DNA of 41,292 nucleotides from a virus (taxonomy: Duplodnaviria > Heunggongvirae > Uroviricota > Caudoviricetes), in the IMG/VR virus record IMGVR_UViG_2718217795_000002, positions 1 through 41,292 of that record. One strand, 5' to 3'. The position numbers and the translations under genes were made by a program. The notes under the pieces were generated by a model, which was not told the origin of the DNA, did not search any database, and saw only the letters and a program-made list of their open reading frames with translations. Position 1 is the stretch's first letter, and each line of letters begins with the position of its first letter. Below, piece after piece: positions 1,690 to 40,224 of this stretch.

Positions 1690-1704
1690 TGGTGTCCCCT
1701 GCAG
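1690..1704. repeat. attR core: 15-bp copy (tggtgtcccctgcag) of the argW 3' end
   Basis: Exact 15-bp match to 40210-40224; flanking bases differ on both sides. Confidence 0.8.
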
Positions 1705-1777
1705 ACATCTACTTGAAGCGGCAGGGGGTTGATTGGAATGGTGTTTTTTAGATGTGATAAATATTTTACCCGCTATT

Positions 1778-1978
1778 TTACCCATTGGCGCGGCTTAAGA
1801 GCTTATTTTTGAATTCACAATGGTCACGATATAACCATCTTGCTCGACCGTGGATAACTTTGGCTTTTGGCAGGTCGCCGGACTTAATCCGGTCATAGAT
1901 GAAGGTTTTACCAAAGCCAGTATCGGCCATGATGAATTTCAAATCAACCAGTGAATCAGGCTGTAGTTCGTGTTGCAT
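1778..1978 (-). CDS. torI: Excisionase-like / AlpA-family DNA-binding protein TorI, 66 aa
   Basis: 66-aa ORF immediately inside attR; sequence MQHELQPDSLVDLKFIMADTGFGKTF... recalled as E. coli KplE1 TorI. Confidence 0.8.
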   Translation of the reverse strand: MQHELQPDSLVDLKFIMADTGFGKTFIYDRIKSGDLPKAKVIHGRARWLYRDHCEFKNKLLSRANG

Positions 1979-2021
1979 GAGTGCTATCTCCGAATAGGGA
2001 ATCGAACCTGCAAATCAGGCA

Positions 2022-2043
2022 ATAAAAAACCGCATTGATGCGG
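2022..2043 (-). terminator. Rho-independent terminator of the leftward early operon (stem ccgca/tgcgg, T-run on minus strand)
   Basis: Plus strand aaaaaaccgcattgatgcgg; on the minus strand a hairpin followed by TTTTTT, downstream of the ORF ending at 2103. Confidence 0.5.
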
Positions 2044-2102
2044 CGATGTTATGTCTGGATATATTGAGAAATGAACAGGCCTCATCGAGTGTGAGGCTGT
2101 GG

Positions 2103-2474
2103 TTAGTCATTGCGTAACTCGCTAATTCTTTTGTAAGTCTCTGGTGCTTTGTTTCCGTGTATCTTCATTTCTGACTTCAACAGAGCAACGAGGGAATCCC
2201 ATTCGTTGAGGATGCCTTTGAATGCCGGAACGCGCTTTGCAACCTTGTCGAATGAATCTCTGATTTCTGGAATCTGCTCGACAAGCGCAACGCATCGTCG
2301 GAAATCGGCTGCGTCATGTGGAGCGCCGAAGTGATGACCATAGATATTCTTTTTCAGTCCACATGCGATTGAGGCAAGAGTTGCGCTACTGATGCCGACA
2401 TCGCCAGTCGATTGCCATTTCAAAACCTTCATAGCCAAATCTGACATTTCTTGTCTCCAATAAAAAACCGCCAT
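2103..2474 (-). CDS. Hypothetical phage protein, 123 aa
   Basis: ORF in the co-directional minus-strand operon; start overlaps stop of the upstream small ORF (TGATG); alternative start at Met10 with a GGAG SD. Confidence 0.6.
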   Translation of the reverse strand: MAVFYWRQEMSDLAMKVLKWQSTGDVGISSATLASIACGLKKNIYGHHFGAPHDAADFRRCVALVEQIPEIRDSFDKVAKRVPAFKGILNEWDSLVALLKSEMKIHGNKAPETYKRISELRND

Positions 2475-2641
2475 CAGGCGGCATGGTGTTCTTTCAGTTC
2501 TTCAATTCGAATATTGGTTACGTCTGCATGCGCTATCTGCGCCCATATCATCCAGTGGTCATAGCAGTCGTTGATGTTCTCTGCTTCGATAACTCTGTTG
2601 AATGGCTCTCCATTCCATTCACCTGTCACCCGGAAGTGCAT
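2474..2641 (-). CDS. Small hypothetical protein, 55 aa (below ORF-track cutoff)
   Basis: ATG at 2641 preceded by GGAG with 7-nt spacer; stop overlaps next start; fills the gap between flanking genes. Confidence 0.3.
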   Translation of the reverse strand: MHFRVTGEWNGEPFNRVIEAENINDCYDHWMIWAQIAHADVTNIRIEELKEHHAA

Positions 2642-2713
2642 TTATCATCTCCATAAAACAAAACTCGCCGTAGCGAGTTCAGATAAAAGAAATCCCCGCG
2701 AATGCGAGGATTG

Positions 2714-2998
2714 TTATTCAGTGCCGATATTCACCTTTATCGCGAACACCTTTACCGGTTTATCGCCGAAGTGGGGATGTGTGATTGTCTTGATTTCATA
2801 TCCGTCATACGGAATATCAATTCTGCGGCTGGAATCGTCGCGCTTCGGATATCCCTTTGTGATAATCAGACGGTCATACTTTCGGAACATAATTCGCTTA
2901 TTCCAATAGTCATTACACAGGCGATACTCTTCCGTTTTCTCTCCGCGAATCATGGCATCGAAGTATTCACCTTTAACGGCAAGTTGCAGGTTAGCCAC
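2714..2998 (-). CDS. Hypothetical protein, possibly ASCH/PUA-like fold, 94 aa
   Basis: ORF in operon; family assignment is from weak recollection only. Confidence 0.6.
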   Translation of the reverse strand: MANLQLAVKGEYFDAMIRGEKTEEYRLCNDYWNKRIMFRKYDRLIITKGYPKRDDSSRRIDIPYDGYEIKTITHPHFGDKPVKVFAIKVNIGTE

Positions 2999-3611
2999 GG
3001 TTAACCTCCTGCGGCGGCTCCGGTAGCGGCATCCAGTGAGTTATTTCATCGGCAAAGATATCTGAGTTAAGTTCCGTCCAACTATTCCAATACCCAGATT
3101 CATCCCACCATTTAACCTCGACATGCTCGCCGTCGGTCACTAACACATCAGCATACCCTTTCGGCATTCGCTCACTACAGCTTATCCAACTATCCGGAGT
3201 TACCGGAGAGTTGCCAGATAGCTCGTTCAACTTGTAAGTTTGGCTTACAGGTTCGGCACCATGAAGCATGGCGGCGCGGCAGGCATTCCAGCCTCTCACC
3301 TCTGCAATAGCGGCAACAGCATCGACCGCGTACATGCTAAGAGGGTTAGGCATTGTTTTTTCTTCAGGTACTACTGGCACTGGAGGGGCGGCATAAACAG
3401 GAATAACGTCCGCTTGCTCTTTATTGCTTTCATCCGTTAAAGCCCAGAATAATTTCCCGGCCGGATGTTTGAAAATATAAGCAACTGGATCTGCTTCCAG
3501 CGATGCCAGAGCAATTTCATAAGCACGGCGCTCAATATTGTCTCGAACGTCCAAGCTGCCTATGCGCTCTTTGATTTCTTTAATCAGTTCTTTGTCGGTA
3601 AAAGTGGTCAT
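2991..3611 (-). CDS. DUF551-domain phage protein, about 206 aa
   Basis: C-terminal WISCSERMPKGY...WMPLPEPP motif typical of DUF551; start moved to ATG at 3611 with AAGGAG SD (track ORF extends to 3641). Confidence 0.7.
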   Translation of the reverse strand: MTTFTDKELIKEIKERIGSLDVRDNIERRAYEIALASLEADPVAYIFKHPAGKLFWALTDESNKEQADVIPVYAAPPVPVVPEEKTMPNPLSMYAVDAVAAIAEVRGWNACRAAMLHGAEPVSQTYKLNELSGNSPVTPDSWISCSERMPKGYADVLVTDGEHVEVKWWDESGYWNSWTELNSDIFADEITHWMPLPEPPQEVNRG

Positions 3612-3612
3612 A

Positions 3613-4320
3613 TCACTCTCCTTTGATGCGAATGCCAGCAAGCCAGTTTCTTATGCCGATATATTCAGCGTTCCTGAAACCGCTTTTTACATATATAAAT
3701 GGCAAGCGAAGATTGTGACCATTGACTGCCAGGTAGTCTTTACAACCCTGTTCGGTGAAACAGCAGGTAACGAATTCATCAATATCTTTCACAGCAACGC
3801 GCCGCCATTTTTCTGGTGGCTCTCGAAAGTTTTCGTGAAGTAGTTCGAGACGACGACTTTGGCGTTTATTGGCTTCATTGCCATCTTCATCAACCCAGAC
3901 AATCCGGTCATAGTCATAATCAGCATCAACAACGATTTCGCGCTTTTGATACACACAAAACATAGGGTCTGACGTTATTCGATTATCCTGTGTTCGAATA
4001 TTTTCACCGATGATGCCAAACGAATCTGGTGCAGAGTTTGTCTGCAACTCTTCGATACGTTCAGCCATAGCAGCACACTCTTCAAAGTTGCTTAATTCTT
4101 TTCGCTCCCATTCGGCGCATTGTTTTTCCAGTTCTGCTATGCGCTTACTCCCATCCGAGATAACGCCCTCGTAATACTCACGCTGCTCGTTGAGTTTTGA
4201 TTCAAGTTCACCGAACTTACGGACAAGATATTCAGCGTTTGTTTCGTTAACCTTTAAATCTCGTGGGATGCATTGACCTTTCAGAAATCCATCCATCTCA
4301 ATTAGTGACATTTGTTTCAT
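3613..4320 (-). CDS. Ea22-like coiled-coil protein, about 235 aa
   Basis: Coiled-coil N-terminal region plus C-terminal domain as in lambdoid Ea22 proteins; track start at 4338 is GTG; ATG at 4320 forms an ATGA overlap with the upstream small ORF. Confidence 0.6.
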
Positions 4321-4481
4321 TTCTTCCCACTCCGCCACATCGCATTCAGATATTTGTTTTGATTTACTGATGGAAAAGAATTTCTCTTAAGCAATTCCTC
4401 TCTCGATGGCATTGGCTTTACGCGTTGGCGAATAATCATTTCTGCCGGAAGAATGCCGGGATTGTATGCAAGTCCTCTCAT
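4317..4481 (-). CDS. Small hypothetical protein, 54 aa (below ORF-track cutoff)
   Basis: ATGA start/stop overlaps with both neighbours (4478-4481 and 4317-4320). Confidence 0.3.
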
Positions 4482-4759
4482 GATTTACTCTCCACGAACT
4501 GGTCAACGGCCATGCTAAGTGACACACCTAAAGTTTCGATATGCTGCTGAATATCCTGTAGCGTCTGCGCCTGAGATAACAGTATTTCACGGTTGCATAA
4601 CTCTTTAACCAGATGCTCAAACTTGCTGTAATAACCGATACGGCTTAGTGTTTCTTTCCCTGCATTCTCGCCTTCTTTGATAATTCCTCTTTCGCTAAGA
4701 ATCAGGTCGTGTTTGGTGCCGGTAATAACGTATTTTCCGAGGTCGATGTTTAGCTTCAT
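4478..4759 (-). CDS. Hypothetical protein, 93 aa
   Basis: ORF in the co-directional operon; no family recognised. Confidence 0.55.
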
Positions 4760-4775
4760 TGTTAATTACTCCATG

Positions 4776-5090
4776 TTAATTTATTCGTATGCCTGCTCTT
4801 TCTTCATCGAGTTTTTTTAGCTTGTATCGCATAGCTCTTACTGAATAAATTGAGCGGCAGGTTGCAATTGCTATTTCTTCTGCGGAGAACTTACCGAAAA
4901 GTGATACTTCGGCTCTTGTCCATCGTCTTCCACGAAGTCGGCTAACAATGTCAGCGCCAATCCTTGTTGCTTTCGCCATTACTGCTTTTTCAGTCCTTTC
5001 CAGTTTTTCAGCGATAACTTCAACTGGCATTGTCGCCGCTACTTCGCGCAAGAAATCGACTTCCCATTTCTCCCATGGAGTCTTTTTCAT
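4776..5090 (-). CDS. Hypothetical protein with two Trp-containing SANT/Myb-like helix repeats (putative DNA-binding), 104 aa
   Basis: Two internal repeats (WEKWEVDFLREVAA... and WTRAEVSLFGKFSAEEIA...) read by eye. Confidence 0.55.
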   Translation of the reverse strand: MKKTPWEKWEVDFLREVAATMPVEVIAEKLERTEKAVMAKATRIGADIVSRLRGRRWTRAEVSLFGKFSAEEIAIATCRSIYSVRAMRYKLKKLDEERAGIRIN

Positions 5091-5101
5091 AGGCGATACC
5101 G

Positions 5102-5590
5102 TTATTTGATAAGAAGTGAAGGTTTCCCAACTTTGAGTTGAGCACCGGGGATATTTATTCCTGCTTTTAGTTGTTGTTTGATTGCCAGTTTGTCGGCTTT
5201 AATTGTCGTTTCGAACTCAACGTATTCAGGAGGAAGGGCGCTTGAGTCGAAGATTTCTACAGTTTCTGACGGTTTGCGGATTGTTACCTGGTGAATACCT
5301 GCTCGAATCTTTTTCTTGCCAACCATTTCAAGCGATGACGCTATATACGCCATAATGCTGTTAATCTTATTTTGAATTACTGCGGCTCGCTCATTTAGTG
5401 ACTTTGCCTCTTCCTTGAGGCGTTCAGCATAACCAGATTCATTTTTAATAATGGCAAGAAGTTGCTCTATTTTATCGGTAAATTCTCCTTCCATGCCTTC
5501 TATTGTGTCAGCAATCATCTCTGGTTCTAAATCTGAATCCATCAATTTTGCGTATTCATTGGCAATTTCATACAGTTTGCTCACTAGCAA
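5102..5590 (-). CDS. Gp157-like coiled-coil protein (recombination-module accessory), 162 aa
   Basis: Directly downstream of recT; family assignment from recollection, moderate. Confidence 0.6.
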   Translation of the reverse strand: MLVSKLYEIANEYAKLMDSDLEPEMIADTIEGMEGEFTDKIEQLLAIIKNESGYAERLKEEAKSLNERAAVIQNKINSIMAYIASSLEMVGKKKIRAGIHQVTIRKPSETVEIFDSSALPPEYVEFETTIKADKLAIKQQLKAGINIPGAQLKVGKPSLLIK

Positions 5591-6470
5591 CCTCCAGTTT
5601 CGCTTTGCATTCTATGTAAATGGCTTGTACGTTCTGCTGCAATTTCATTCCAGATGTCAGGCGATATGCTTCTGCAAAATATCGCTTCAAATCATCCATG
5701 TTTTCTGCCTGAGCCATTTCATCACAAAGAAGTTGTGCTTTATCCATTATTTCCTGCTGGCGTTTCCGTTCATCTTCGCGGATATCTTCCTCTGATTTGT
5801 GCGGCATAACTGGTTCCTGATGCATACCTTCATCTTCGTTAAGCAGGTGAATGGCATTATCCAGTCGCTGGGCTTTAGGCCAGTATTTGCTGGCACGTTT
5901 AACTATTGTTTTACGCGCCATCTCTTCCCAGAATGTTTTCCACGGTCCATTCTTTGCCTTGCTCGTTGCTTCCACAGCTTTAATTTCTGCCAGACTCATT
6001 TCTTCAGTCAGGTAGTCACCATCTGCTGTTTTAACCGTGCAATAACCTCCAACAATAGAGCCTCGCTCACCAAATGCGTTGTATTTGTGGGTTGGTGCTG
6101 AATCAAGGCCATTTGATTCATAGGTGTCGTTTGAGTACACCAGTTTGCATTGCCCCCACTTAATTGATCCTGTCGATTGCGCAAGATGAAGTAATCCCAT
6201 GTAACTGATATCAAGGCACACCATGCCGTCGCGCGGAACCAGATAAGCAAGTTTGCTGGCCGGGTTTAAGGTGATGCCGATCGCCGCAACATTGATGATG
6301 GCGTTCTGTGCGCTGGTTGGATTTGCCAGTGCCGTTTTAGCCAGGTAATCATTTTTCTGGAAATACTGAATTGCAAACTGGCTTTCCTTAGCCCATGTCA
6401 CCGTCTGTTCAGTCAATGCTCCGCAGAATAACTGCTCTTGCTGTTTAACGAATTCAACGATATTGCTCAT
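5568..6470 (-). CDS. recT: RecT-family single-strand annealing recombinase, 300 aa
   Basis: Motifs such as GITLNP...AYLVPR and overall similarity to RecT; sits in the lambda bet position. Confidence 0.85.
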   Translation of the reverse strand: MSNIVEFVKQQEQLFCGALTEQTVTWAKESQFAIQYFQKNDYLAKTALANPTSAQNAIINVAAIGITLNPASKLAYLVPRDGMVCLDISYMGLLHLAQSTGSIKWGQCKLVYSNDTYESNGLDSAPTHKYNAFGERGSIVGGYCTVKTADGDYLTEEMSLAEIKAVEATSKAKNGPWKTFWEEMARKTIVKRASKYWPKAQRLDNAIHLLNEDEGMHQEPVMPHKSEEDIREDERKRQQEIMDKAQLLCDEMAQAENMDDLKRYFAEAYRLTSGMKLQQNVQAIYIECKAKLEVASEQTV

Positions 6471-6778
6471 GCTGCTTCTCCAAAAATGTGTCTGCGTTTG
6501 AATATTGCGAAGGCATATTCAGCCTTAACTCTTTCTGTTATTGCATCCCAGAACCATTCAGCGGCTTTTTCCTGATAGTTACAGTCATCATCTTCCAGCC
6601 AGTCGATAGCGTCCTTAGTGTGTTCATCTGGCTTATATGAGCGAAGCATTTCGCTTATTGGGTCGCAACGTTTGCAGAGGCGATCAACTTCACTGTTGAT
6701 TCGTTCGTAATCTTCATCAGTAAAACTTGCGATTATTTGCGATATTTCACGCTTATCATTCAGAGTCAGAATCATCAT
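6467..6778 (-). CDS. Hypothetical protein, 103 aa
   Basis: ORF whose stop overlaps the recT start; in the lambda gam position but no Gam similarity recognised. Confidence 0.55.
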   Translation of the reverse strand: MMILTLNDKREISQIIASFTDEDYERINSEVDRLCKRCDPISEMLRSYKPDEHTKDAIDWLEDDDCNYQEKAAEWFWDAITERVKAEYAFAIFKRRHIFGEAA

Positions 6779-6859
6779 CTTTCTCCTGTTCTTTGTGCTG
6801 ATTGAGCATTTTGTTCATCTGACGAATGAATTCTTCGTCTGACCAGTTATCTGTAAAAC

Positions 6860-7012
6860 TCATTTCCTGCGATACCACGGAATGTTGATCGCTGATTTCA
6901 TCGCTTTATTTGCTTCAAGCCACATTTTGGAATCACCAATAAATCTGGCTATTACTGCTTTGTTTTGTGCTGCACGAAGCATCTGGTGATTGATGGCTAT
7001 TTCATTGCGCAT
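6860..7012 (-). CDS. kil: Kil-like host cell-division inhibitor, 50 aa (below ORF-track cutoff)
   Basis: GGAGG SD 4 nt upstream of ATG; segment IARFIGDSKMWLEANKA resembles recalled lambda Kil (IATFIGDEKMFREA); located between cIII-like ORF and the recombination genes as in lambda. Confidence 0.4.
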   Translation of the reverse strand: MRNEIAINHQMLRAAQNKAVIARFIGDSKMWLEANKAMKSAINIPWYRRK

Positions 7013-7131
7013 AACGCCTCCAGTTGTTTCTTTGCTGCTCTGATTAATTGTTTAACTCGGCGTGATAATTCAGATTCGTGCGGGTAGAAAGCGGACATGA
7101 CGCCGCTACCCGCGAGCTGAAAGTGCATCAT
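6997..7131 (-). CDS. cIII: cIII-like FtsH inhibitor, 44 aa (below ORF-track cutoff)
   Basis: GGAG SD; pattern ..AG..V......ES.L..R...L.. resembles recalled lambda CIII; position leftward of N as in lambda. Confidence 0.4.
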   Translation of the reverse strand: MMHFQLAGSGVMSAFYPHESELSRRVKQLIRAAKKQLEALCAMK

Positions 7132-7214
7132 GGGTAACTCCTTATATTTGATTGCATAACGAAAACGCCTCGAGTGAAGCGTTATTGGTATGCGGTAAAG
7201 CCGCGCTCAGGCGG

Positions 7215-7463
7215 CTACTCTATTTCTTCTTCGAATGATTTTATTAGTCGGTCAATAACATCATCCGTTTCAATATCATTTCCGTCTGATTGCTTTAATA
7301 CATCTATTGATTCTGCAGCGGTGAATTCCATCGCTGTGAGAAACTCGACAATTGCACACTCAACGACATATCGTTCTTCATCTGTACGACATGAGATAAA
7401 AGAGCATTTAATTGCTGTTATTACTTTTTGTTTAAGCTCTGCAGGGTAATCAGTTTTTATCAT
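7215..7463 (-). CDS. Hypothetical acidic protein, 82 aa
   Basis: ORF immediately downstream of a terminator hairpin; occupies the lambda ea10 position. Confidence 0.55.
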   Translation of the reverse strand: MIKTDYPAELKQKVITAIKCSFISCRTDEERYVVECAIVEFLTAMEFTAAESIDVLKQSDGNDIETDDVIDRLIKSFEEEIE

Positions 7464-7476
7464 CGTTTACTCCGTC

Positions 7477-7505
7477 AAAAAAATTGCCCTCACATTAGAG
7501 GGCAA
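7477..7505 (-). terminator. Rho-independent terminator within the pL operon (8-bp stem ttgccctc/gagggcaa plus T7 run on minus strand)
   Basis: Perfect 8-bp inverted repeat with 6-nt loop followed by TTTTTTT on the transcribed strand. Confidence 0.65.
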
Positions 7506-7660
7506 AGAAGATTTCCAATAATCAGAACAAGTCGGCTCCTGTTTAGTTACGAGCGACATTGCTCCGTGTATTCACTCGTTGGAATGAATACACAGTGCTG
7601 TGTTTATTCTGTTATTTATGCCAAAAATAAAGGCCACTATCAGGCAGCTTTGTTGTTCTA

Positions 7661-7807
7661 TTAACCAAGTTCTCTGGCAATCATTGCCGTCGTTCGTATT
7701 GCCCACACCATTGATTCTTATCAATAGTCGTAGTCATACGGATAGTCCTGGTATTGTTCCATCACATCCTGCGGATGCTCTTCGAACTCTTCAAATTCTT
7801 CTTCCAT
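7661..7807 (-). pseudogene. ral: ral-like (restriction alleviation) reading frame interrupted by tandem in-frame stops (TGA TAA)
   Basis: 28-aa acidic ORF with GAGGTGA SD (7721-7807), then TGA TAA, then the same frame encodes ...MVWAIRTTAMIARELG*, matching the recalled C-terminus of lambda Ral. Confidence 0.4.
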
Positions 7808-7861
7808 ATCTCACCTCAAATAAGTGGTTTGCTGCGAAAGTAAATACGCTTAAGTTACCTG

Positions 7862-7999
7862 TTATTTATCCCACCAAGTTCCGTATCTATCTATCCAGTT
7901 ACACCAATCATCGACACTCCATTTTGTTGTGTCGCATTTTGGCAACTGGCATGAATATCTACCTTCTTTGTAAAGTCGGCGCTTGACTTTCTTGAGCAT
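7862..7999 (-). CDS. Small Cys/Trp-rich hypothetical protein, 45 aa (below ORF-track cutoff)
   Basis: ATG preceded by GAGGTGA SD; just downstream of N stop. Confidence 0.3.
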   Translation of the reverse strand: MLKKVKRRLYKEGRYSCQLPKCDTTKWSVDDWCNWIDRYGTWWDK

Positions 8000-8007
8000 G
8001 GCTCACC

Positions 8008-8340
8008 TCAATCGTAATAAGCTGGAATTGATTTTCCGCGTTGCTTCTGGCGGCCTGAGCAAGTCACACCTATTTCACTGCGTGGCTTGCTGTACCATGT
8101 GCGCTGATTCTTGCGCTCAATACGCTGCAGGTTGCTTTCAATCTGTTCGTGGTATTCAGCCAGCACCGTAAGGTCTATCGGATTCAGTGCGCTTTCTACT
8201 CGTGAATTCGGTTTGCGATTCAGCGAGAGAATAGGGCGGTTAACTGGTTTTGCGCTTACCCCAACCAACAGGGGATTTGCTGCTTTCCATTGAGCCTGTT
8301 TCTCTGCGCGACGTTCGCGGCGGCGTGTTTGTGCATCCAT
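8008..8340 (-). CDS. N: Antitermination protein N (lambda type), 110 aa
   Basis: N-terminal arginine-rich motif MDAQTRRRERRAEKQAQWKAAN identical to lambda N; track ORF trimmed to the ATG at 8340. Confidence 0.9.
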   Translation of the reverse strand: MDAQTRRRERRAEKQAQWKAANPLLVGVSAKPVNRPILSLNRKPNSRVESALNPIDLTVLAEYHEQIESNLQRIERKNQRTWYSKPRSEIGVTCSGRQKQRGKSIPAYYD

Positions 8341-8450
8341 CTGGATTCTCCTGTCAGTTAGCTTTGAGTAACGCGCCGTGATGCTTATCTCCACGGTTGC
8401 TGTCTTGCAGCTGCATTTCGCGCTACTCAAAGCTTTCTGCTTTGAATGCT

Positions 8451-8481
8451 GCCCTTCTTCAGGGCTTAATTTTTAAGAGCC
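8451..8481 (-). promoter_or_regulatory. nutL site: boxB (8451-8465, reads GCCCTGAAGAAGGGC on minus strand) and boxA-like GCTCTTAAA (8472-8480)
   Basis: Reverse complement matches recalled lambda nutL almost base for base; located between pL region and N. Confidence 0.8.
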
Positions 8482-8522
8482 TCACCTTCATGGTGGTCAG
8501 TGCGTCCTGCTGATGGCTAAAT

Positions 8523-8562
8523 AGTACGATTTGTACTTTATCGAGTCAATACAAAATGTTCT
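8523..8562. promoter_or_regulatory. Putative OL operators / pL region: perfect dyad agtac-N5-gtact (8523-8537) and a degenerate copy (8548-8562)
   Basis: Palindromes read by eye; related half-sites recur in the cI-cro intergenic region. Confidence 0.35.
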
Positions 8563-8612
8563 AAATATAGTTGGTTTTTTATAACGCTTTGTATTTAATG
8601 GGTTTATATTTT

Positions 8613-8642
8613 GGAAAAAGAAAACCCGACACTAAGGTCGGG
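8613..8642 (-). terminator. Putative rho-independent terminator downstream of cI (stem cccgac/gtcggg, T-rich tail on minus strand)
   Basis: 6-bp stem with 6-nt loop; A-rich run 8613-8624 on plus strand equals T-rich tail for the minus-strand transcript. Confidence 0.45.
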
Positions 8643-8674
8643 TTATTGTTGTGTGCTTTAGAGTGGTGAGGTTG

Positions 8675-9328
8675 TTAACTAAATGTCTCTTCAGGCCACT
8701 GGCTGGCGATAACTTTCCCTACAACGGAACAGCTATCATTGCATGGGATCATTGGATATTGCGGGTTTAGTGGTTGTAGGAACACCTGACCGCTATCCCT
8801 GATCAGTTTCTTGAAGGTAAACTCGTCACCACCAAGTCTGGCTATGCAGAAATCACCTGGCTCAACAGCCTGCTCAGGGTCAACGAGAATTAACATCCCG
8901 TCAGGAAAGCTTGGCTTGGATCCTGTTGGTGCGGTCATGGAATTACCTTCAACTTCAAGCCAGAACGCACAATCACTGGCTTTTTTGGTTGTGCTGACCC
9001 ATCTCTCCGCATCACCTTTGGTAAAGGTTCTAAGCTCAGGCGAGAACATCCCGGCCTGAACATGAGAAAAAACAGGGTACTCATATTGTTTTTTAACGGG
9101 GGCAGATGAGTATTCGCCAACAGGTGAAAATGTACCGTCGTGGTTGAATGAGACGTTATCAATACCAAGGTATTTAAACACCACACCAATCTCGTCAAGA
9201 GATGGATGACGAGATCCGCGCAACCAGTGACCAATTCCACCCTGCGTCATACCAAGCTCTTCAGCTAACTTCTCTTGAGTTATGCCGAGCTCTTTCATTC
9301 TGGATCTAGCCAGTTCATACCATTTCAT
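8675..9328 (-). CDS. cI: CI-type repressor, chimeric: non-lambda HTH N-terminal domain fused to a lambda-CI-like C-terminal S24 autocleavage/dimerisation domain
   Basis: C-terminal region from [14 protein letters not shown] to ...[12 protein letters not shown] is near-identical to recalled lambda CI; N-terminal HTH differs; start chosen at ATG 9328 (9 nt after the purine-rich AAGGG, which abuts the ATG at 9334). Confidence 0.9.
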
Positions 9329-9445
9329 TTTCATACCCTTATTATTACGCTCTGTACTAAAACCATCCATGCACAAGATGTATTTTTTGTTTGCATTCTA
9401 AAAGTACATATCGTATTATTGTTTCATGGTTACTATGGAGGGCAT
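9329..9445. promoter_or_regulatory. Divergent cI-cro control region (OR operators, pRM and pR)
   Basis: 117-bp intergenic region between divergent cI and cro with dyad-like elements (9344-9358, 9369-9396, 9403-9417). Confidence 0.5.
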
Positions 9446-9661
9446 ATGAGCAACCTACGAAAATATCGAGAGTCACTGAATATCTCTCAAACAACACTTG
9501 CTAAGGCAGTTGGATGCACACAGGGAGCTATCGGACATTGGGAATCTGGTCGTCGCTTCCCAGACCTTAAAACATGCCGTGCTCTTGTTGAGTGCCTAAA
9601 CAAGTTAGGCGCAAAAGTCAGTCTTGATGACGTGTTCCCGCCGGAACACAAAGCCGCTTAA
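9446..9661 (+). CDS. cro: Cro-like HTH repressor, 71 aa
   Basis: ATG with GGAGG SD; short HTH protein divergent from cI; track ORF 9275-9661 trimmed. Confidence 0.8.
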   Translation: MSNLRKYRESLNISQTTLAKAVGCTQGAIGHWESGRRFPDLKTCRALVECLNKLGAKVSLDDVFPPEHKAA

Positions 9662-9670
9662 GACATTCTA

Positions 9671-9701: not shown

Positions 9702-9777
9702 ATTACCAGAAACAAATCTCTATGGTTTTGCGTTTCTTTGCGAAGCCAACTCTATCTAATTATTAAGGAAATTATCT

Positions 9778-32520: not shown

Positions 32521-32945
32521 TGGAACTGTGGCTGACGGTGAACGGTAAACGCACCTGCGCCAGCGCACCGCTGGATCCGCTGACCCGCGCCGTGGTGATT
32601 TCCCTGTTTACCTGGCGGCGGGCGGAGCCTGATGACAACGCCGACGTCCCGATGGGATGGTGGGGGGATACCTGGCCTGCGGTACAGAATGACCGTTACG
32701 GCTCCCGACTGTGGCTGCTTCAGCGCAGCAAACTGACCAATCAGCTGGTGCAGACGGTAAGGGGATATATCCGCGAATGCCTGCAATGGATGATTGATGA
32801 CGGCGTGGTGTCCCGTATTGATCTGGATATCCGCCGCACCGGGATTAATGAGCTGGGTAACAGTATCACCCTCTGGCGTCGTGATGGACCAGTAATGATT
32901 TCTTTTGATGATCTGTGGAGTGCGATAACGCATGGCGGACAGTGA
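32517..32945 (+). CDS. Baseplate protein (Mu gp46-like), 142 aa
   Basis: ATGA coupling; conserved position. Confidence 0.75.
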   Translation: MMELWLTVNGKRTCASAPLDPLTRAVVISLFTWRRAEPDDNADVPMGWWGDTWPAVQNDRYGSRLWLLQRSKLTNQLVQTVRGYIRECLQWMIDDGVVSRIDLDIRRTGINELGNSITLWRRDGPVMISFDDLWSAITHGGQ

Positions 32946-33990
32946 ATTTCAGCGCCCGACGCTGGCAGAAAATATCAGTATGCTCCGTAACGATTTATTC
33001 GCCAGGCTGGACGTCAGCGACACGCTCCGGCGCATGGATGAAGACGTGCGGGCAAAGGTGTATGCGGCGGCGCTGCATACGGTTTACGGGTACATCGATT
33101 ATCTGGCAATGAATATGCTGCCTGACCTGTGCGATGAGTCCTGGCTGGCGCGACATGCTGCGATGAAACGGTGTCCGCGCAAGGGGGCCACGGCTGCCAG
33201 CGGGTATATGCGCTGGGAAGGTGTCAGCGATGGCCTGAAGGTGACTGCCGGGAGCGTGATTCAGCGCGATGACCTGGTTCAGTACACGGCAACTGCCGAT
33301 GCAACCAGCTCCGGTGGTGTCCTGCGTGTGCCGATCACTTGCTCAACTACAGGCGCGGTCGGTAACGCTGACGACGGTACGGCATTAATCCTGGTCACGC
33401 CGGTGAATGGTCTGCCGTCTTCCGGTGTTGCAGATACCCTGACTGGCGGATTCGATACTGAAGATCTGGAAACGTGGCGCGCCCGCGTCATTGAGCGGTA
33501 TTACTGGACGCCGCAGGGCGGGGCTGACGGGGACTATGTCGTCTGGGCTAAAGAAGTGCCCGGCATTACCCGCGCATGGACATACCGTCACTGGATGGGA
33601 ACGGGAACTGTCGGTGTGATGATTGCCAGCAGTGACCTGATTAATCCCATTCCGGAAGAATCAACGGAAACGGCGGCAAGACAACATATCGGGCCACTGG
33701 CCCCGGTGGCAGGCTCTGATTTGTATGTGTTCAGGCCGGTGGCGCATAAAGTGGATTTTCATATCCGCGTGACGCCGGACACACCGGAAATACGGGCTGC
33801 CATCACCGCGGAGTTGCGTTCGTTCCTGCTGCGTGATGGTTATCCGCAGGGAGAACTGAAGGTGTCGCGTATCAGTGAGGCGATTTCCGGTGCGAACGGG
33901 GAATACAGCCATCAGTTGCTTGCACCGGCAGACAATATCTCCATTGCAAAAAATGAACTGGCGGTTCTGGGGACGATTTCATGGACGTGA
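32932..33990 (+). CDS. Baseplate J-like protein (Mu gp47-like), 352 aa
   Basis: Baseplate J family similarity. Confidence 0.85.
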
Positions 33991-34565
33991 CAAACGATGA
34001 TTACATCCGTCTGTTGTCGGCACTGTTGCCACCCGGTCCGGCGTGGTCAGCCAGAGATCCGGCGATTGCCGGTGCGGCACCGTCATTAACCCGCGTTCAT
34101 CAGCGTGCGGATGCCCTGATGCGGGAGCTGGATCCGCGCACCACCACTGAACTGATAAACCGCTGGGAGCGTCTGTGCGGTCTGCCGGATGAATGTATTC
34201 CCGCAGGGACACAGACCCTTCGCCAGCGTCAGCAACGGCTGGATGCGAAGGTTAATCTGGCGGGCGGCATCAATGAGGATTTTTACCTTGCACAGCTTGC
34301 TGCCATGGGCAGACCAGACGCCACTATCACGCGATACGATAAAAGCACGTTCACCTGCTCATCGGCCTGTACTGACGCGGTGAATGCGCCGGAATGGCGG
34401 TATTACTGGCAGGTCAACATGCCAGCCGCCACCAACACCACCTGGATGACATGTGGCGATCCCTGTGATTCCGCACTGCGTATCTGGGGCGACACCGTTG
34501 TCGAGTGCGTGCTTAACAAACTCTGCCCGTCGCATACCTACGTAATTTTTAAATATCCGGAGTAA
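33981..34565 (+). CDS. Tail protein (Mu gp48-like, DUF2313), 194 aa
   Basis: Position and family similarity. Confidence 0.75.
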
Positions 34566-34568
34566 TCC

Positions 34569-35540
34569 ATGCATCGTATAGACACGAAAACCGCGCAGAA
34601 GGATAAGTTCGGCGCGGGTAAGAACGGTTTTACCCGTGGTAACCCCCAGACCGGCACACCTGCCACCGATCTGGATGATGACTACTTTGACATGTTGCAG
34701 GAGGAGCTTTGCAGCGTTGTGGAGGCCTCCGGTGCCAGCCTGGAGAAAGGGCGGCACGACCAGTTGCTTACCGCGCTTCGTGCGCTGCTGTTAAGCCGCA
34801 AAAATCCGTTTGGCGATATCAAATCGGATGGCACGGTGAAAACGGCTCTCGAAAACCTTGATTTGGGAGATGAGAGCGGATACGTTGGCCGCCTGCTGAA
34901 CGTGCAGACTTTCTACACAAGCGGAACCTACACGCCTACAGCCGGCACGAAAAAAGTAATCGTTGAAATGGTTGGCGGCGGCGGTGGCGGCGCTGGAGCG
35001 CGCGCCGCAGGACCTGGCCAGGTAGCCGTTGGTGGTGCCGGAGGTGCTGGCTCGTATGCAAAAGCTCAGTTTACTTCTGGTTTTAGCGGCGTAAACGTAA
35101 TTGTTGGCTCAGGAGGGATGGGTGGCACTACATCTAATCCTTACGCAAGCAGCGGTGGCACTTCGTCTTTCGGCAATCTTGTTTCAGCTGCTGGGGGAGA
35201 TTCTGGCAAACCAGCCGGGCCGTCAGGCTCTTTCCCCTTCTCAACTGTGGCGGCAACTGTTTCAGCTTCGCCTTCAGGATCGGGTGTAATTGTCGGAACT
35301 CCCGGTGAAGGCGCAGCATCGTCCATTGCTTTGAGTGCTGGAGTTTCGATTTCTTCTCCCGGTGGATCGTCACGCTTTGGCGCGGGAGGATTCATTACTG
35401 CTTATGGTGCCAATGGTATTGATGGTGCAGGTTATGGCGCTGGCGGTGGACCTGTTGCGACGTCAACAGGCACGCCTAATACTGCTCTGGCAGGTGGTAA
35501 CGGATCTATGGGTATTGTGATTGTTTGGGAGTATGCATAA
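34569..35540 (+). CDS. Tail fibre protein with glycine-rich C-terminal region, 323 aa
   Basis: Conserved N-terminus [22 protein letters not shown]; Gly-rich C-terminal half; followed by tfa. Confidence 0.8.
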
Positions 35541-35941
35541 TGGAAGCTGAAGACTACGCAGTAATTGATGGTGATGGAAATATTGTGAATGTTATCGTTT
35601 GGGATGGCGTCACAGAATGGGAACCACCTGAAGGTACTCAGGCAGTAAGGTGCGGTGATAACCTTTACGGGATTGGCGGAACATATAAAGACGGGGTATT
35701 CACCTTTCCTCCGGCGCCAGAGGTACCAAAAGAGGATTTAATTAATCAGGCAGAACAGCAAAAGGCCAACCTGATAGCCGAAGCAAGCCAGACGATCTCC
35801 ATACTTCAGGATGCGATCGACCTAGACATGGCGACAGATGAAGAAAGAACACAGTTAACTACACTGAAAAAATATCGCGTGCTTTTAAGCCGGGTTGATA
35901 CTTCCAAGGCGCCTGATATTGACTGGCCGACAGCCATATAA
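35540..35941 (+). CDS. Tail fibre assembly protein, about 133 aa
   Basis: Start ATG 35540 overlapping tail-fibre stop; Tfa-like C-terminal region. Confidence 0.75.
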   Translation: MEAEDYAVIDGDGNIVNVIVWDGVTEWEPPEGTQAVRCGDNLYGIGGTYKDGVFTFPPAPEVPKEDLINQAEQQKANLIAEASQTISILQDAIDLDMATDEERTQLTTLKKYRVLLSRVDTSKAPDIDWPTAI

Positions 35942-35947
35942 ATTTCA

Positions 35948-35965
35948 CCCCGGCTTAAGCCGGGG
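35948..35965. terminator. 18-bp perfect palindrome ccccggcttaagccgggg between convergent tfa and gtrC; possible bidirectional terminator
   Basis: Perfect palindrome at the convergence point; no clear T-run on either strand. Confidence 0.35.
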
Positions 35966-35970
35966 CATCC

Positions 35971-37443
35971 TCAGCACTTAGTTCTTAGAAAATCAATGAT
36001 CAGAATATCATTGAATGAGTAAAGTGAGTAAATGCTTCCCTTGGTGATCAGGGTGCTTTTACATATCATATTTTTCTTTTCACTTCCTAATACTTTGAAC
36101 TCTAAATTCATTCCATAGTGATTTAGAAGTTCCGCTCCCCAAACCCAGTCATAACTCAAGTAAACAGGAACGAGCTTTGACATAAGCGGTAGTTTATTTT
36201 CCGCCATGAGCAATTGCCTTGACTTAGGCATTTCTCCATTAACAGTAACGTATTTGAGGCTAAATTCATGGTGAGATGTTTCCTGAAATACGGAGGTGGC
36301 TATTATCTCATCAGTTATGGACTGGCTCTTGGACGCATTGGAAAAAGAGTAACTGTAAACAAAGCTAATCCAAACTAACGGAGCGAAAATAAAAGTCAAA
36401 ATTACAGGGCTTTTTATATTTCGCAGCATCAGGAAAGCATAAAACATAGCTGCACCAGAAAAAGAGAGAAGAACCCTTGGTGCAAAAACTGGGCTTTTAA
36501 GTATTGCCATAGGTGCTATTGAAAATACCAGAACTAAAAAGGGTGATAATATCAGGATTAAAAGAGCTATAGCATTATCTTTTGAGCCTATCTTATAGAT
36601 TTCATAAGCCATTTTAATTGTTGAATATGCAATTGCTGAGGGGATTAAAACCCTTAATGCGACAGGCATGCTATGAAAATAGCTATTCAAAAACCATAGG
36701 AAGCTTTTGATGTTCTCAATAAGCACCGATAAGGATTCATGGCTTAACTTAATAACTTCAGAGTGAGTTATGTTATAGTAATCCTTAACGAAGTAAGAAG
36801 ATATAAATGTCTTATATATCAGGAAGGCTATAAACAGCTGCATTACCCTTCTTGCTATCATTGAAGCAATATGTTTGTTGCCTTTGTTCGAAGCCGTAAT
36901 AGATTCAATCAAAGCCAGAATAGCAAACAGACCTATTGATGCCTGATAAAGAGAAAGAGATCCTATAATCATAAGAATAGAAAATAGGTCGCTTATGTAT
37001 CGCCTGCTGGCAACTGAGTATGGAATTAGCAGTAACACCATGCTCAAAGCCATTGTTAAAGAGTCAAATCTGTATGAAAGGTTCTCAATGTAGAATGGAT
37101 TTGCTATGAACAGAAAGCATATAACAAGCGATCCTATAAAGCTAATTTCGCCAAAAAATTTTGCAGCATAATAATACAGGGCAATGCAAAGTATCAAAAC
37201 ACTTAATATTTGATTGAGTGGTGACAAGTCTAGCAGTTCACCGCCTAAGCTCATAGACTGCATTATTGCATCACTTAACGGCCTGCCGTTTAACCCCCAT
37301 CCGGAATATCCATACAGAGTCCGACCCAAGTCATCAATGTAGAGCCTGCCCGTTAAGATTATAGGCATCACATAAAGTGCAATCAAAGCACAGAAAAACA
37401 TGAAAGAGAATGTGCGCGGTTGCTTTTTAAAAATTGAAATCAT
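35971..37443 (-). CDS. Serotype-specific O-antigen glucosyltransferase (GtrC/Gtr-type-specific, polytopic membrane protein), about 490 aa
   Basis: Third gene of gtr cassette; many predicted TM helices; start set at ATG 37443, 7 nt after gtrB stop (track ORF extends to 37533 and overlaps gtrB). Confidence 0.8.
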   Translation of the reverse strand: MISIFKKQPRTFSFMFFCALIALYVMPIILTGRLYIDDLGRTLYGYSGWGLNGRPLSDAIMQSMSLGGELLDLSPLNQILSVLILCIALYYYAAKFFGEISFIGSLVICFLFIANPFYIENLSYRFDSLTMALSMVLLLIPYSVASRRYISDLFSILMIIGSLSLYQASIGLFAILALIESITASNKGNKHIASMIARRVMQLFIAFLIYKTFISSYFVKDYYNITHSEVIKLSHESLSVLIENIKSFLWFLNSYFHSMPVALRVLIPSAIAYSTIKMAYEIYKIGSKDNAIALLILILSPFLVLVFSIAPMAILKSPVFAPRVLLSFSGAAMFYAFLMLRNIKSPVILTFIFAPLVWISFVYSYSFSNASKSQSITDEIIATSVFQETSHHEFSLKYVTVNGEMPKSRQLLMAENKLPLMSKLVPVYLSYDWVWGAELLNHYGMNLEFKVLGSEKKNMICKSTLITKGSIYSLYSFNDILIIDFLRTKC

Positions 37444-37450
37444 ATAGATG

Positions 37451-38368
37451 TCATTCCTTTGACTTAGTAATGTATCTTGGTCTGTTCTTTGTTTCGATGT
37501 AAATGCGGCCAATGTATTCGCCGAGCACTCCAATACCTATCAGCTGAACGCCGCCAAGGAATAGCATCGATACCATTATCGATGTATATCCCTTCACCGG
37601 ATTGCCAAAACAAAGGGTATCCACAATCATGTATGCCCCATAAAAAAATGAGCAACCGGCTACGAAGAGACCGATATACGTCCACATTCTCAGCGGGAAG
37701 GTAGAAAAACTCGTTATCCCTTCAAGCGCCAGATTCCAAAGTTTCCAGCCATTAAACTTACTTTTTCCTGCGGCTCTTTCGGCTCTAACGTATTCAACCA
37801 CATCTGTCTTACCACCTACCCAGGATAGTATCCCCTTCATAAAAAGGTTTCTCTCAGGCAGCAGTTTGATGTGTTCGACAACTTCTCGGGACATAAGACG
37901 AAAATCGCCGACGTTCTCTTCAATTTGAGGATTACTGATTAAGTTGTGAAGATGGTAGAACCATTCAGCGCTTTTTCTCTTGAGGTAGCTATCGCAAGAC
38001 CTATCCATGCGCTTTGCCAGAACAACATCAGCCCCTTCTCGCCATTTCTCAATCATGCGCGGAATGACTTCCAGCGGGTCCTGAAGGTCCACGTCTATAG
38101 GTATTACCACCTCGCCGCTGGCCTCTGCTAGCCCAGCAAATAACGCAGCTTCTTTACCAAAGTTGCGAGTAAAGAATATGTTTTTGACCAGACTATCTTC
38201 CTGCGCCATCTCTTTCATCAGAACAGCAGTGAAGTCAGTGCTACCGTCATCTACAAAGACAATTTCAACCTCTTCCCCCTGGAAGGGCTGAAAATGACGG
38301 ATTTCCCTATAGAAAATGGTTATGGCGTCTTCTTCATTAAATACCGGAACGACAAGGGATATTTTCAT
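37451..38368 (-). CDS. gtrB: Bactoprenol glucosyltransferase GtrB (GT2 family), 305 aa
   Basis: [13 protein letters not shown]..., DDGSTD motif, two C-terminal TM helices. Confidence 0.95.
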
Positions 38369-38727
38369 CCTCTATCCTTGAAAACAATGTACTTTGAATA
38401 AATGAATCCACACACCATGCTGATGGCGGAGAAGGTGACAAGAGTGACAATTGGAGGAAGTGAACATCTATCAGCAGCCCATCCAACAGTAGCACTCAGT
38501 GTTCCCATGAACCCGACATATAACATGTAGCGCATCGTTGTAGTTGATGCTTTGAATGTGAATTTTGCATTCGCAAAGAAGCTAAAACTCACAGCCACAA
38601 CGAAACCTGCGAAGTTTGCCATAGCCTGATTGGTATGCGCGGCATAGATACATACACCAAAAACCACCCAGTGTATAAGTGTGTTCAGCACGCCAATCAA
38701 GGTGTACTTTGCAAATAGCTTTAACAT
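38365..38727 (-). CDS. gtrA: GtrA flippase-like membrane protein, 120 aa
   Basis: Small 4-TM protein upstream of and overlapping gtrB. Confidence 0.9.
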
Positions 38728-38890
38728 TTCTTCTATCAGCTAATAATCAAAAGCATGAAGTCTATCATCTAAGTCTCAATCGATCGATACTTGCTGTAGT
38801 TGATGAGACAAAACTCTGGCACACAAAGCTTTGCACTGGATTACAAGGCCATGTGTCAGATCAAGTCGCGACTAATACAGTTAAGGCGGA

Positions 38891-40084
38891 TCACTCCACC
38901 TTTTCATCAAGCCAGTCCGCCCACCATTGCATCATTTCTCTGCGCTTATCGAGATACTGAGCATGGTTGTAAATTCCACGTACAGATCCGCCGTTGGCAT
39001 GTGCCAGTTGCACTTCAATGGCGTCGGCAGGCCATTCGTGCTCGTTCATAATCGTGCTGAATTCATGCCTGAATCCGTGACCGCTTTCCAGACCTTCATA
39101 GCCGATTTGTTTGATCACAAGCAATACCGCGTTCTCGCAGATTGGCTTCTTCTTATCGTTGCGCCCGGCAAAAACAAACTCTGATACTGGTTTGGTGATT
39201 GAGCTTAGCGTAGTGAGAAGTTCAACCACCTGGTCTGACATCGGGACCACATGAATTTTGCGTCCCTTCATCACATTGGCGTCAATGGTGATAATCCTGT
39301 TTTCAAAATCGACGTTCTTCCATTGCATGGAACGAAGCTCTTTTGTTCTTAGGGCTGTGTAGCGTAAAACCTTGGTGGCAATGAGCGATACGATACTTCC
39401 TGAAAATGTTGCCAGTGCTTTATTGAATGCCGGGATCTGGTCTGCAGGAAGAAACGGGAAGTTCTTCTTGCGGTATCCCTTCATGGCGTCAGCAAGGTCA
39501 GGTGCTGGGTTATATTTAGCCCTTCCGGTGACAATAGCGTAACGGAAAACCTCGCCGCATCTTCTGCGGGCTTTGTTGGCTCGCTCCATTGCACCGCGAT
39601 CTTCAAATCTGCGGATTACTTCCAGCAGTTGCATCGGCTCAATATCCTGAATCTCAAGACCGCCGATGATAGGTAAAATGTCGTCGTCAAACATTTTGGC
39701 AAGTTCAGTCGCATACCCTACAGACCATACTTGCTTCTTGTGCTCGTACCATTCTTTGTAAATCGCACTAAAGGAATTGTTGTTAGACGAAGCCTTTTTC
39801 GCCTTTACCGGATCGATGCCAACCGAGATGTCTTTCCTCGCAGTCCATGCCTTATCCCTTGCCTCCTGCAAAGTCATTAGCGGATATTTTCCTACGGTCA
39901 GGACTTTCTCCTTACCGTCAATCTTGTAGCGAAGCTGCCATACCTTTTTCCCTGATACAGGGACATAAAGGTACAGGCCATTACCATCGAGTAGGCGGTA
40001 TGGTTTTTCTTTCGGCTTAGCTGCTTCAATCTGCTTAACGGTGAGCATGGGTAAAAATCCGGTGGGTAAAATTATTTTATCCAC
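38891..40084 (-). CDS. intS: Tyrosine integrase, P4-like family (IntS-type, argW-specific), 397 aa
   Basis: N-terminal MLTVKQIEAAKPKEKPYRLLDGNGLYLYV...; C-terminal catalytic R..HxxR..Y region; adjacent to argW. Confidence 0.95.
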   Translation of the reverse strand: MDKIILPTGFLPMLTVKQIEAAKPKEKPYRLLDGNGLYLYVPVSGKKVWQLRYKIDGKEKVLTVGKYPLMTLQEARDKAWTARKDISVGIDPVKAKKASSNNNSFSAIYKEWYEHKKQVWSVGYATELAKMFDDDILPIIGGLEIQDIEPMQLLEVIRRFEDRGAMERANKARRRCGEVFRYAIVTGRAKYNPAPDLADAMKGYRKKNFPFLPADQIPAFNKALATFSGSIVSLIATKVLRYTALRTKELRSMQWKNVDFENRIITIDANVMKGRKIHVVPMSDQVVELLTTLSSITKPVSEFVFAGRNDKKKPICENAVLLVIKQIGYEGLESGHGFRHEFSTIMNEHEWPADAIEVQLAHANGGSVRGIYNHAQYLDKRREMMQWWADWLDEKVE

Positions 40085-40209
40085 TTTTTACCCGTCATGG
40101 AGTGCGGCTGTCAACGATCTGACGCGAACCATGACGAACCGTGAATATACGGAAGGCTTGATATTCAGGGGATTTTGCGGACTGGTACGGATGGGAGCGA
40201 ACTGATAAA

Positions 40210-40224
40210 TGGTGTCCCCTGCAG
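40210..40224. repeat. attL core: 15 bp of the argW 3' end duplicated at 1690-1704
   Basis: Exact direct repeat. Confidence 0.8.

Follow-up and report, generated by a model that had tools for sequence, protein, structure and literature searches.

An apparently intact lambdoid/SfV-type hybrid prophage at the argW site of Escherichia coli, with near-identical copies in Klebsiella

We have analyzed a stretch of Caudoviricetes DNA of 41,292 nucleotides (IMG/VR record IMGVR_UViG_2718217795_000002, positions 1 to 41,292; hereafter, the window), which carries a prophage in the tRNA gene argW, at its 3' end. The reading most compatible with the data, to which we assign a probability of roughly 0.7, is that of a structurally intact, 38,520-bp temperate lambdoid/SfV-type hybrid myovirus, integrated by its integrase IntS at the 3' end of Escherichia coli argW. 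Judging from its sequence, the prophage may be inducible. Of its 38.5 kb, 36 (4193-40209) were 99.92-100% identical, without gaps, to argW prophages found on long Klebsiella contigs.

The limits of the prophage were set by two att cores, one of them being part of the tRNA gene:

1690-1704, unstranded: left att core, at the junction on the side of the excision gene torI; a 15-bp copy of the argW 3' end
40210-40284, minus strand: argW, tRNA-Arg(CCU), called by ARAGORN and scoring 63.4 bits with the Rfam tRNA model; the right att core occupies its first 15 bases (40210-40224)

The window contains the 15-mer TGGTGTCCCCTGCAG two times and no more (1690-1704 and 40210-40224), and two matches were obtained in none of 100 shuffles. 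Past the core, the identity of the two copies went on imperfectly for 5 bases (family D6). When the prophage was deleted in silico by joining 1090-1689 to 40210-40809, the resulting 1200 bp matched E. coli MLI108K3 as one ungapped piece with 100% identity; this reconstructed empty site was matched at a coverage of at least 80% in 1,412 of 5,426 complete E. coli genomes. Since the rejoined flanks are 100% identical to an unoccupied site, the element is a precise insertion of 38,520 bp (one core copy counted) into argW. The host is an E. coli with csc sucrose genes, the left flank encoding a CscB-like transporter of the major facilitator superfamily and the right flank containing yfdC. These results bore out the initial annotation, made from the letters of the window, which had placed the prophage at argW between precise 15-bp att repeats. 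Its predicted attP junction, running from 40209 through the core to 1705, was also correct according to the exact boundaries, and the sequence expected after excision would be ...GAACTGATAAA-TGGTGTCCCCTGCAG-ACATCTACTTG.... At gathering thresholds, Rfam reported no family besides tRNA in the window.

The duplicated core at the argW 3' end fits the CTGCAGGGGACACCA(T) of the recombination module of the KplE1/HK620/Sf6/Kapi1 type (core sequences in PMC2951348 and PMC8787464), KplE1 being the element of E. coli K-12 also called CPS-53. The core identity comprises 16 nt in K-12 (PMC2951348) and 17 bp in the Kapi1 host (PMC8787464); the shorter 15 bp of the window result solely from the csc-type left flank, which has TC, instead of AA/A, directly before the core. 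The K-12 equivalent of the left core is the annotated pseudogene pawZ.

Other sequences were observed around the left junction. In E. coli genomes with an empty site, the stretch between cscB and the att core (1249-1689) is annotated as a short protein with a DUF4942 domain; it may be the relic of an older island at the hypervariable argW locus. Inside the prophage, 20 nt upstream of the torI start codon, positions 1998-2013 repeat, without a mismatch, 16 nt of the argW T-arm, GGAATCGAACCTGCAA, which in the tRNA directly follow the att core (40224-40239). The tRNA 3' half thus looks split, with a 293-bp torI segment in between. This copy is kept in CPS-53 and Kapi1, was found in 19 of the 20 torI-bearing loci fetched and is not covered by the 135-bp att substrate described in the literature; a longer attP in an ancestor may have left it behind.

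Integration and excision are assigned to the following genes and sites:

1778-1978, minus strand: torI/xis, recombination directionality factor of 66 residues, 100% identical to K-12 TorI and to the Kapi1 excisionase
38891-40048, minus strand: intS, tyrosine integrase of 385 residues, 99.2% identical to K-12 IntS and 98.7% to Kapi1 Int
1705-1800, unstranded: torI-side att arm, with two exact ATTTTACCC arm-type-like repeats (1763-1771 and 1775-1783)
40049-40209, minus strand: intS-side att arm, with the PintS promoter (-35 TTGACA, -10 TAAAAA) and arm-type-like repeats, from the alignment with K-12, Kapi1 and E. coli MB30

The Pfam domains of IntS are Arm-DNA-bind_3 (PF13356), Phage_int_M (PF22022) and Phage_integrase (PF00589), and its translation retains the R..K..HxxR..H..Y pattern (ALRTKEL, KGRK, HGFRHE, LAHA, GIYNH). 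The assignment of the enzyme to the P4-type integrases, proposed in the initial annotation, agreed with the Arm-DNA-bind_3 domain architecture and with the tRNA 3'-end target. The gene adjoins the tRNA, with torI separately transcribed at the opposite prophage end, as expected for a module of the KplE1/HK620/Sf6/Kapi1 type. Exact ATTTTACCC repeats were confined to the two att arms within the window, and the primer site CCATTGGCGCGGCTTAAGAG of the K-12 attR substrate (PMC3509656) was present at 1782-1801. The intS-side arm, which is overlapped by a small open reading frame (ORF) of 52 residues identical to Kapi1_070, was nearly identical to that of K-12, the -35 and -10 positions of PintS being invariant in the alignment. 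In K-12 this promoter has been mapped experimentally and lies in the att arm, overlapping arm-type sites with TAAA (PMC2951348), and the K-12 IntS and TorI proteins excise KplE1 in vivo and in vitro (PMC2951348, PMC3509656). The IntS/TorI module is a conserved cassette common to KplE1, HK620, Sf6, CUS-3 and Kapi1 (PMC2951348, PMC3509656, PMC8787464), and Kapi1 is a viable phage integrating at argW (PMC8787464).

We have found no frameshift or premature stop in the repressor, excision, replication, lysis, packaging, head or tail genes. Most of the map was resolved by running the annotated proteins of SfII and Kapi1 against the window by tblastn. In the late region, all 22 SfII morphogenesis proteins from TerS to gp48 aligned end to end and uninterrupted, with 91-100% identity:

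17243-19943, plus strand: packaging genes (HNH endonuclease, cos region, TerS, TerL)
19955-24689, plus strand: head and neck genes (small membrane protein, portal, S78 prohead protease, HK97-family capsid, 66-residue ORF, connector, head-closure, neck)
24686-34565, plus strand: tail and baseplate genes (terminator, DUF2635, sheath, tube, chaperone, tape measure, DNA_circ_N, and gp44-, gp45-, gp46-, gp47/J- and gp48-like proteins)
34569-35941, plus strand: tail fibre (323 residues) and tail-fibre assembly protein (133 residues, Caudo_TAP)

The SfII genome end maps to 17593/17594, in a cos region that is 97% conserved. The head and neck proteins were 91-100% identical to those of SfII over their full length, with Pfam and phrogs in agreement. 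The HK97-type head proposed in the initial annotation was confirmed by the PF05065 capsid, the S78 protease, the PF04860 portal and the HNH endonuclease with TerS/TerL; the proposed Mu/SfV-like contractile tail was likewise recovered as a sheath, a tube, DNA_circ_N and homologues of Mu gp44-48, 98-99% identical to SfII. The tail and baseplate block as a whole, with proteins like Mu gp43-48, had 98-100% identity to SfII at full length. The chaperone gene shares its end with a 60-residue ORF in a different frame (27497-27679), which reaches up to the tape-measure gene. Such an arrangement is the usual one for a programmed frameshift product, and we regard the ORF as a putative gpG/GT-like one.

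The tail fibre resembles that of SfII over its first 101 residues and continues with a different, glycine-rich C-terminal domain. It is encoded by one continuous ORF of 323 residues, which its phage homologues match to the last residue, and the exact protein was present in 138 blocks of the collection searched. Among the GTDB species-representative genomes, the fibre protein retrieved N-terminal (SfV-type) relatives only. We have rejected the PGAP call of a pseudogene (incomplete stfP) for the homologous fibre of E. coli LR4 (locus L007, 4510-5480) as an annotation artefact, since the 323-residue ORF is continuous there and in the window; the miscall likely arose because the reference protein matches only the first 101 residues.

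The early region follows the lambdoid plan, with cI and cro divergent from OR, nut sites, an O-type initiator, nin genes, Q, and a late operon starting with the lysis genes:

8008-8340, minus strand: N antiterminator, 110 residues, with the lambda N36 arginine-rich motif (PF11438, E=2.6e-26; 92.5% identical to HK544 N)
8451-8465, minus strand: nutL boxB GCCCTGAAGAAGGGC, exact match, found in 0 of 100 shuffles
8521-8562, minus strand: PL-like promoter overlapping two AGTAC-N5-GTACT operator-like palindromes (OL)
8675-9334, minus strand: cI repressor, 219 residues, with HTH_3 and S24 peptidase domains (Pfam), 97.2% identical to cI of the Stx2c phage 2851
9335-9445, unstranded: OR region, with a PR-like promoter (9390-9419) and operator-like palindromes at 9344-9358 and 9403-9417
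9446-10256, plus strand: cro (9446-9661), nutR boxB (9687-9701), cII (9778-10059) and a 53-residue ORF
9687-9701, plus strand: nutR boxB GCCCTGAAAAAGGGC, exact match
10243-12437, plus strand: replication genes O (273 residues, 99.6% identical to phage 2851) and DnaB-like helicase (458 residues, 99.6% identical to Kapi1)
12511-15466, plus strand: nin region and late regulator (NinB, NinE, NinF, Roi/antirepressor, YbcO, RusA, NinH and the 207-residue Q, the last 100% identical to Kapi1)
15900-17216, plus strand: lysis cassette (lambda-family holin, GH24 endolysin, Rz at 16667-17059 and an overlapping Rz1/LysC with a lipobox, LLTGC)

We take GCCCTGAAGAAGGGC and GCCCTGAAAAAGGGC to be the lambda boxB sequences. 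The cI translation keeps the Ala-Gly site (VQAGMF), the Ser (GNSM) and the Lys (FKKL), and Cro was 98.6% identical to that of phage 2851. With at most one mismatch, AGTAC-N5-GTACT was found only beside the PL-like and PR-like promoters, a clustering at OL and OR that is suggestive of operators. The second replication protein is DnaB-like, and we have replaced its candidate assignment as lambda P accordingly.

The lambda-type regulation described in the initial annotation was recovered in full, with N and its N36 motif, exact boxB sequences in nutL and nutR, cI, Cro, CII, CIII, Kil, O and Q, and so were the P22/lambdoid nin genes (NinB, NinE, NinF, Roi, YbcO, RusA and NinH). Its lambda-type lysis held in part: the cassette is present, but the endolysin is a GH24 lysozyme, as annotated in MB30, and not a lambda R transglycosylase.

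The Klebsiella contigs came from searches for exact matches to three proteins, namely the tail fibre, the head-closure protein and Roi. The alignments were the following:

Window 4193-24012: GCA_043986885.1, DAZXNW010000002.1 (locus L055), 15 mismatches in 19,820 bp, 0 gaps
Window 24569-40209: the same contig (L013), 4 mismatches in 15,641 bp
Window 13798-34208: GCA_041448235.1, JBGMUY010000010.1 (L045), 4 mismatches in 20,411 bp
Window 24569-40209: the same contig as L045 (L012), 1 mismatch in 15,641 bp
Window 24569-40209: GCA_041419495.1 (L014), 0 mismatches in 15,641 bp

The copies in Klebsiella pneumoniae (DAZXNW010000002.1 and JBGMUY010000010.1) and in the K. oxytoca complex (JAQSKO010000004.1) were 99.78-100% identical, with the same site and the same orientation, and gene lengths were identical in the Klebsiella copies. 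For the prophage of locus L015, which was 99.78% identical, the flank proteins are named K. michiganensis/K. grimontii in public records; exact flank protein sequences of the other contigs are named Klebsiella pneumoniae. One K. pneumoniae-type flank, with 99.3-99.9% identity, was shared by 5 of the 6 fibre-bearing loci. Beyond the att core, the Klebsiella contigs run into yfdC, mlaA and fadL, which are 74-79% identical to those of E. coli. We have rejected an apparent Klebsiella identity of 98.5% through yfdC, a long megablast alignment having absorbed flank that is only ~78% identical. Right after the core, the tRNA carried the host's own single-nucleotide polymorphisms in every case. These host-specific differences are as independent integrations would leave them, and not as expected from co-transferred flanking DNA. 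The Klebsiella prophage copies are unannotated, and our literature search returned nothing relevant on a Klebsiella argW or gtr prophage of this type.

L055 is the K. pneumoniae copy for which the left end was obtained, and the window differed from it only at 2152-4192, where accessory genes have been replaced; the torI region was 95.4% identical. The accessory early-left genes of this segment resemble those of E. coli argW prophages, and look-ups with RecT and a 94-residue ORF yielded many unrelated E. coli argW mosaics. Among the 5,426 complete E. coli genomes, none contained the whole mosaic, and the best reached only ~97% over the late, fibre and gtr regions. Exact-protein look-ups at the left end found the DUF551 and Ead-like proteins not on record and ORF123 on one unrelated contig, and the look-ups of left-end proteins revealed no second E. 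coli copy of the prophage.

The simplest reading of these data is that a single lineage of the phage has lysogenised both genera very recently and that its left end was re-assorted in E. coli. We have considered, as a very unlikely alternative, that the window is an assembly chimera from a mixed or contaminated sample, in which E. coli flanks became attached to the contig of a Klebsiella prophage by way of the shared intS/att module and homologous early-left genes. The near identity of 4193-40209 to the Klebsiella copies, with no complete E. coli genome above ~97%, would be compatible with such an artefact, as would the right-hand switch to E. coli, which falls within a 31-bp stretch common to both hosts, and the left-end proteins, which were not found together with the phage in the public collection. 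However, a chimera needs two separate mis-joins, whereas both junctions are exactly as IntS integration predicts. Moreover, argW prophages of E. coli typically have a left 2.5 kb of this kind, which makes recombination with a resident lambdoid prophage the simpler explanation, and the presence of the same phage in at least two species of Klebsiella shows that hosts are switched.

A broader reading, to which we give slightly less than an even chance, is that of a live temperate myovirus which currently moves between E. coli and Klebsiella (K. pneumoniae and the K. oxytoca complex) via the argW core, its gtr cassette remodelling the O-antigen of either genus. The lineage would be mainly one of Klebsiella, and the window would represent an E. 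coli lysogen with a re-assorted left end. The near-clonal Klebsiella copies are the strongest sign, although an indirect one, that the phage is, or very recently was, infectious. That the receptor is an O-antigen common to both genera is pure speculation.

Some observations weigh against a fully functional phage. In a collection of 50,697 phage records, no isolated phage covered the whole mosaic, so that plaque formation is a prediction for this exact lineage. With two mismatches allowed, the operator palindromes were not enriched across the window (12 vs. 7.8 expected). Missense defects, a non-inducible repressor or promoter mutations would also be compatible with the sequence. Finally, ral is decayed, though dispensable:

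7643-7722, minus strand: ral remnant, in which residues 6-16 and 46-66 of HK544 Ral match in two different frames

The match in two frames implies an internal deletion and a frame change relative to HK544 ral. Hence, the statement in the initial annotation that all modules are present and apparently intact stood for the essential genes, which were free of the frameshifts and stops it had proposed to look for, and needs a minor correction for this dispensable gene. In the Klebsiella copy L055 an 18-residue Ral fragment was called too, with the same kind of lesion; being common to the Klebsiella copies, the lesion is older than the spread.

Such observations could also be accommodated by a recently immobilised cryptic prophage, with intact ORFs and one or more point mutations that prevent its induction or the formation of particles (for example an ind- cI, an inactive terminase or portal, or a promoter mutation), persisting as an excisable gtr island. 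Missense or regulatory defects would be invisible to sequence alone, the site tolerates decayed relatives that still excise, as CPS-53 does in K-12 (PMC2951348), and one accessory gene, ral, has already decayed. We nevertheless consider this explanation unlikely, since none of the 60-odd genes is truncated and the prophage differed by 0-15 substitutions and no indels from copies in several Klebsiella hosts, which left little time for decay; the ral lesion, shared with these copies, predates the spread. A structurally intact phage remains our preferred reading.

The hybrid architecture itself is already known from E. coli 042p1, MB30 and SfV, and the window is another member of this group. With the SfV-like myoviruses the phage shares the head and tail genes in SfV gene order and the position of gtrABC between the tail genes and int/att. 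Its late region (17243-34870) has ~97% DNA identity to SfII/SfI/SfIV/SfV, with HNH/cos packaging, an HK97-type head and a Mu-like baseplate in common. Unlike SfII, whose Int and Xis had no tblastn match in the window at E<=1e-5, it has a different early region, a different tail-fibre C-terminus and a different fibre assembly protein; GtrB is only 76% identical and GtrC had no tblastn match to gtrII. SfI, SfII, SfIV and SfV integrate at thrW, whereas the phage of the window uses argW.

Another of the closest relatives is Kapi1, a P22-like podovirus that also occupies argW. The two share Xis (100%), Int (98.7%) and the same attP, and much of the early-left operon, the helicase, the nin genes, Q and the holin are 94-100% identical; in both, xis and int lie at opposite prophage ends (PMC8787464). 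Kapi1 differs in its P22-type morphogenesis genes and tailspike, in lacking a gtr cassette and in its immunity region (cI 36.5% identical).

CPS-53/KplE1 of K-12 has the same tRNA site and core and the same gene order, argW-intS-gtrABC-tfa-fibre. The kinship with this decayed element, already recognized in the initial annotation, was substantiated by IntS (99.2%), TorI (100%), GtrA (90%) and the K-12 yfdL pseudogene (locus L003, 7885-8124), which matches 34631-34870, the 5' part of the fibre gene, with 95.8% identity. The yfdL match and the gene order suggest that CPS-53 may descend from an SfV-type myovirus, and the phage of the window is a good model for its ancestor before decay. KplE1 differs in being a 10.2-kb remnant without repressor, replication, lysis or morphogenesis genes, which is not SOS-inducible (PMC2951348), and its GtrS/YfdI is only 20% identical to GtrC of the window.

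Prophage 042p1 of the enteroaggregative E. coli 042 likewise combines an early half resembling lambda/P22 with a late half resembling SfV and has gtr at the end (PMC2808357), but it occupies another chromosomal location, at another 15-bp repeat. The argW prophage of E. coli MB30 has the same hybrid plan and intS, with ~97.7% identity over 20 kb and a GtrC 99.2% identical; the differences concern immunity, replication, part of nin and the C-terminus of the fibre, and the MB30 prophage contains an IS5.

The O-antigen glucosylation cassette, assigned by homology, lies between the fibre genes and intS:

35971-38727, minus strand: gtrC (490 residues, PF14264), gtrB (305 residues, GT2) and gtrA (120 residues, PF04138)

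The gtrABC cassette of the initial annotation was thereby verified as members of the GtrA flippase, GtrB bactoprenol glucosyltransferase and serotype-specific, polytopic GtrC families. The gtr stretch is the low-GC part of the prophage, with 36% GC at 36-37 kb, within gtrC. An IMG/VR scan with GtrC found other viral contigs carrying only the 2.7-kb gtr cassette, with 98.9% identity, and did not find the whole phage. Three loci (L008, L009 and L011) matched the gtrC-gtrB segment (35708-38427) and nothing else of the window within the 13-kb loci fetched. Since a 98.9% identical segment sits in other phage backgrounds, the gtr cassette moves between phage backbones as a unit. In Shigella phages, O-antigen glucosylation by Gtr converts the serotype and blocks superinfection.

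The leftmost genes of the prophage comprise an accessory group and an operon:

2103-4481, minus strand: accessory early-left genes (ORF123 of phrog_1229, a 55-residue ORF, a 94-residue ORF of phrog_625, DUF551, Ead/Ea22-like, DUF2737-like)
4478-7463, minus strand: early-left operon (DUF5405, Kapi1_010-like, Sipho_Gp157/Gam-like, RecT, two small ORFs, Kil, CIII and an anti-restriction protein of phrog_14587)

The operon proteins were 88-100% identical to those of Kapi1. PHROGs placed the accessory ORFs mostly under 'unknown function', and PADLOC detected no defence-system protein among 10 of them, ORF123 included. ORF123 (2103-2474, 123 residues) is bracketed by terminator-like hairpins at 2020-2044 and 2458-2482, which are 84% alike, and is absent from Kapi1 at the same position; the hairpin-ORF123-hairpin layout resembles a moron insertion.

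The proposed working of the phage is drawn throughout from homology to characterised phages, and it is in this way that the expression of the genes, the excision of the prophage, the production of particles and the sugar for which GtrC is specific are predicted. In the lysogen, cI would shut PL and PR, and intS would be autoregulated from its own promoter in the att arm, while gtrABC would probably be expressed, with glucosylation of the host O-antigen by GtrA, GtrB and GtrC. DNA damage and the SOS response would lead to RecA-stimulated self-cleavage of cI. N would then antiterminate at nutL and nutR, allowing leftward transcripts to pass the hairpins at 2020-2044 and 2458-2482 into torI. TorI, IntS and IHF would recombine the 15-bp cores, releasing the attP circle and restoring argW, and the circle would be replicated by O and the DnaB-like helicase. 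Finally, Q would switch on the late operon for lysis, HNH/TerS/TerL cos packaging, and assembly of the HK97-type head and the Mu-like contractile tail.

As a prophage, the element is routine, lambdoid/SfV hybrids with gtr and the argW IntS/TorI module being both well described. As an intact counterpart of CPS-53/KplE1, it would make the IntS/TorI control of excision amenable to study alongside a repressor, N and lytic genes. If the circulation between Klebsiella and E. coli is true, it would provide a specific, testable example of a temperate phage that passes from one genus to another and takes surface-antigen-modifying genes along, and would bear on phage host range, on the stability of serotypes and vaccine targets, and on gene flow between two major nosocomial pathogens.

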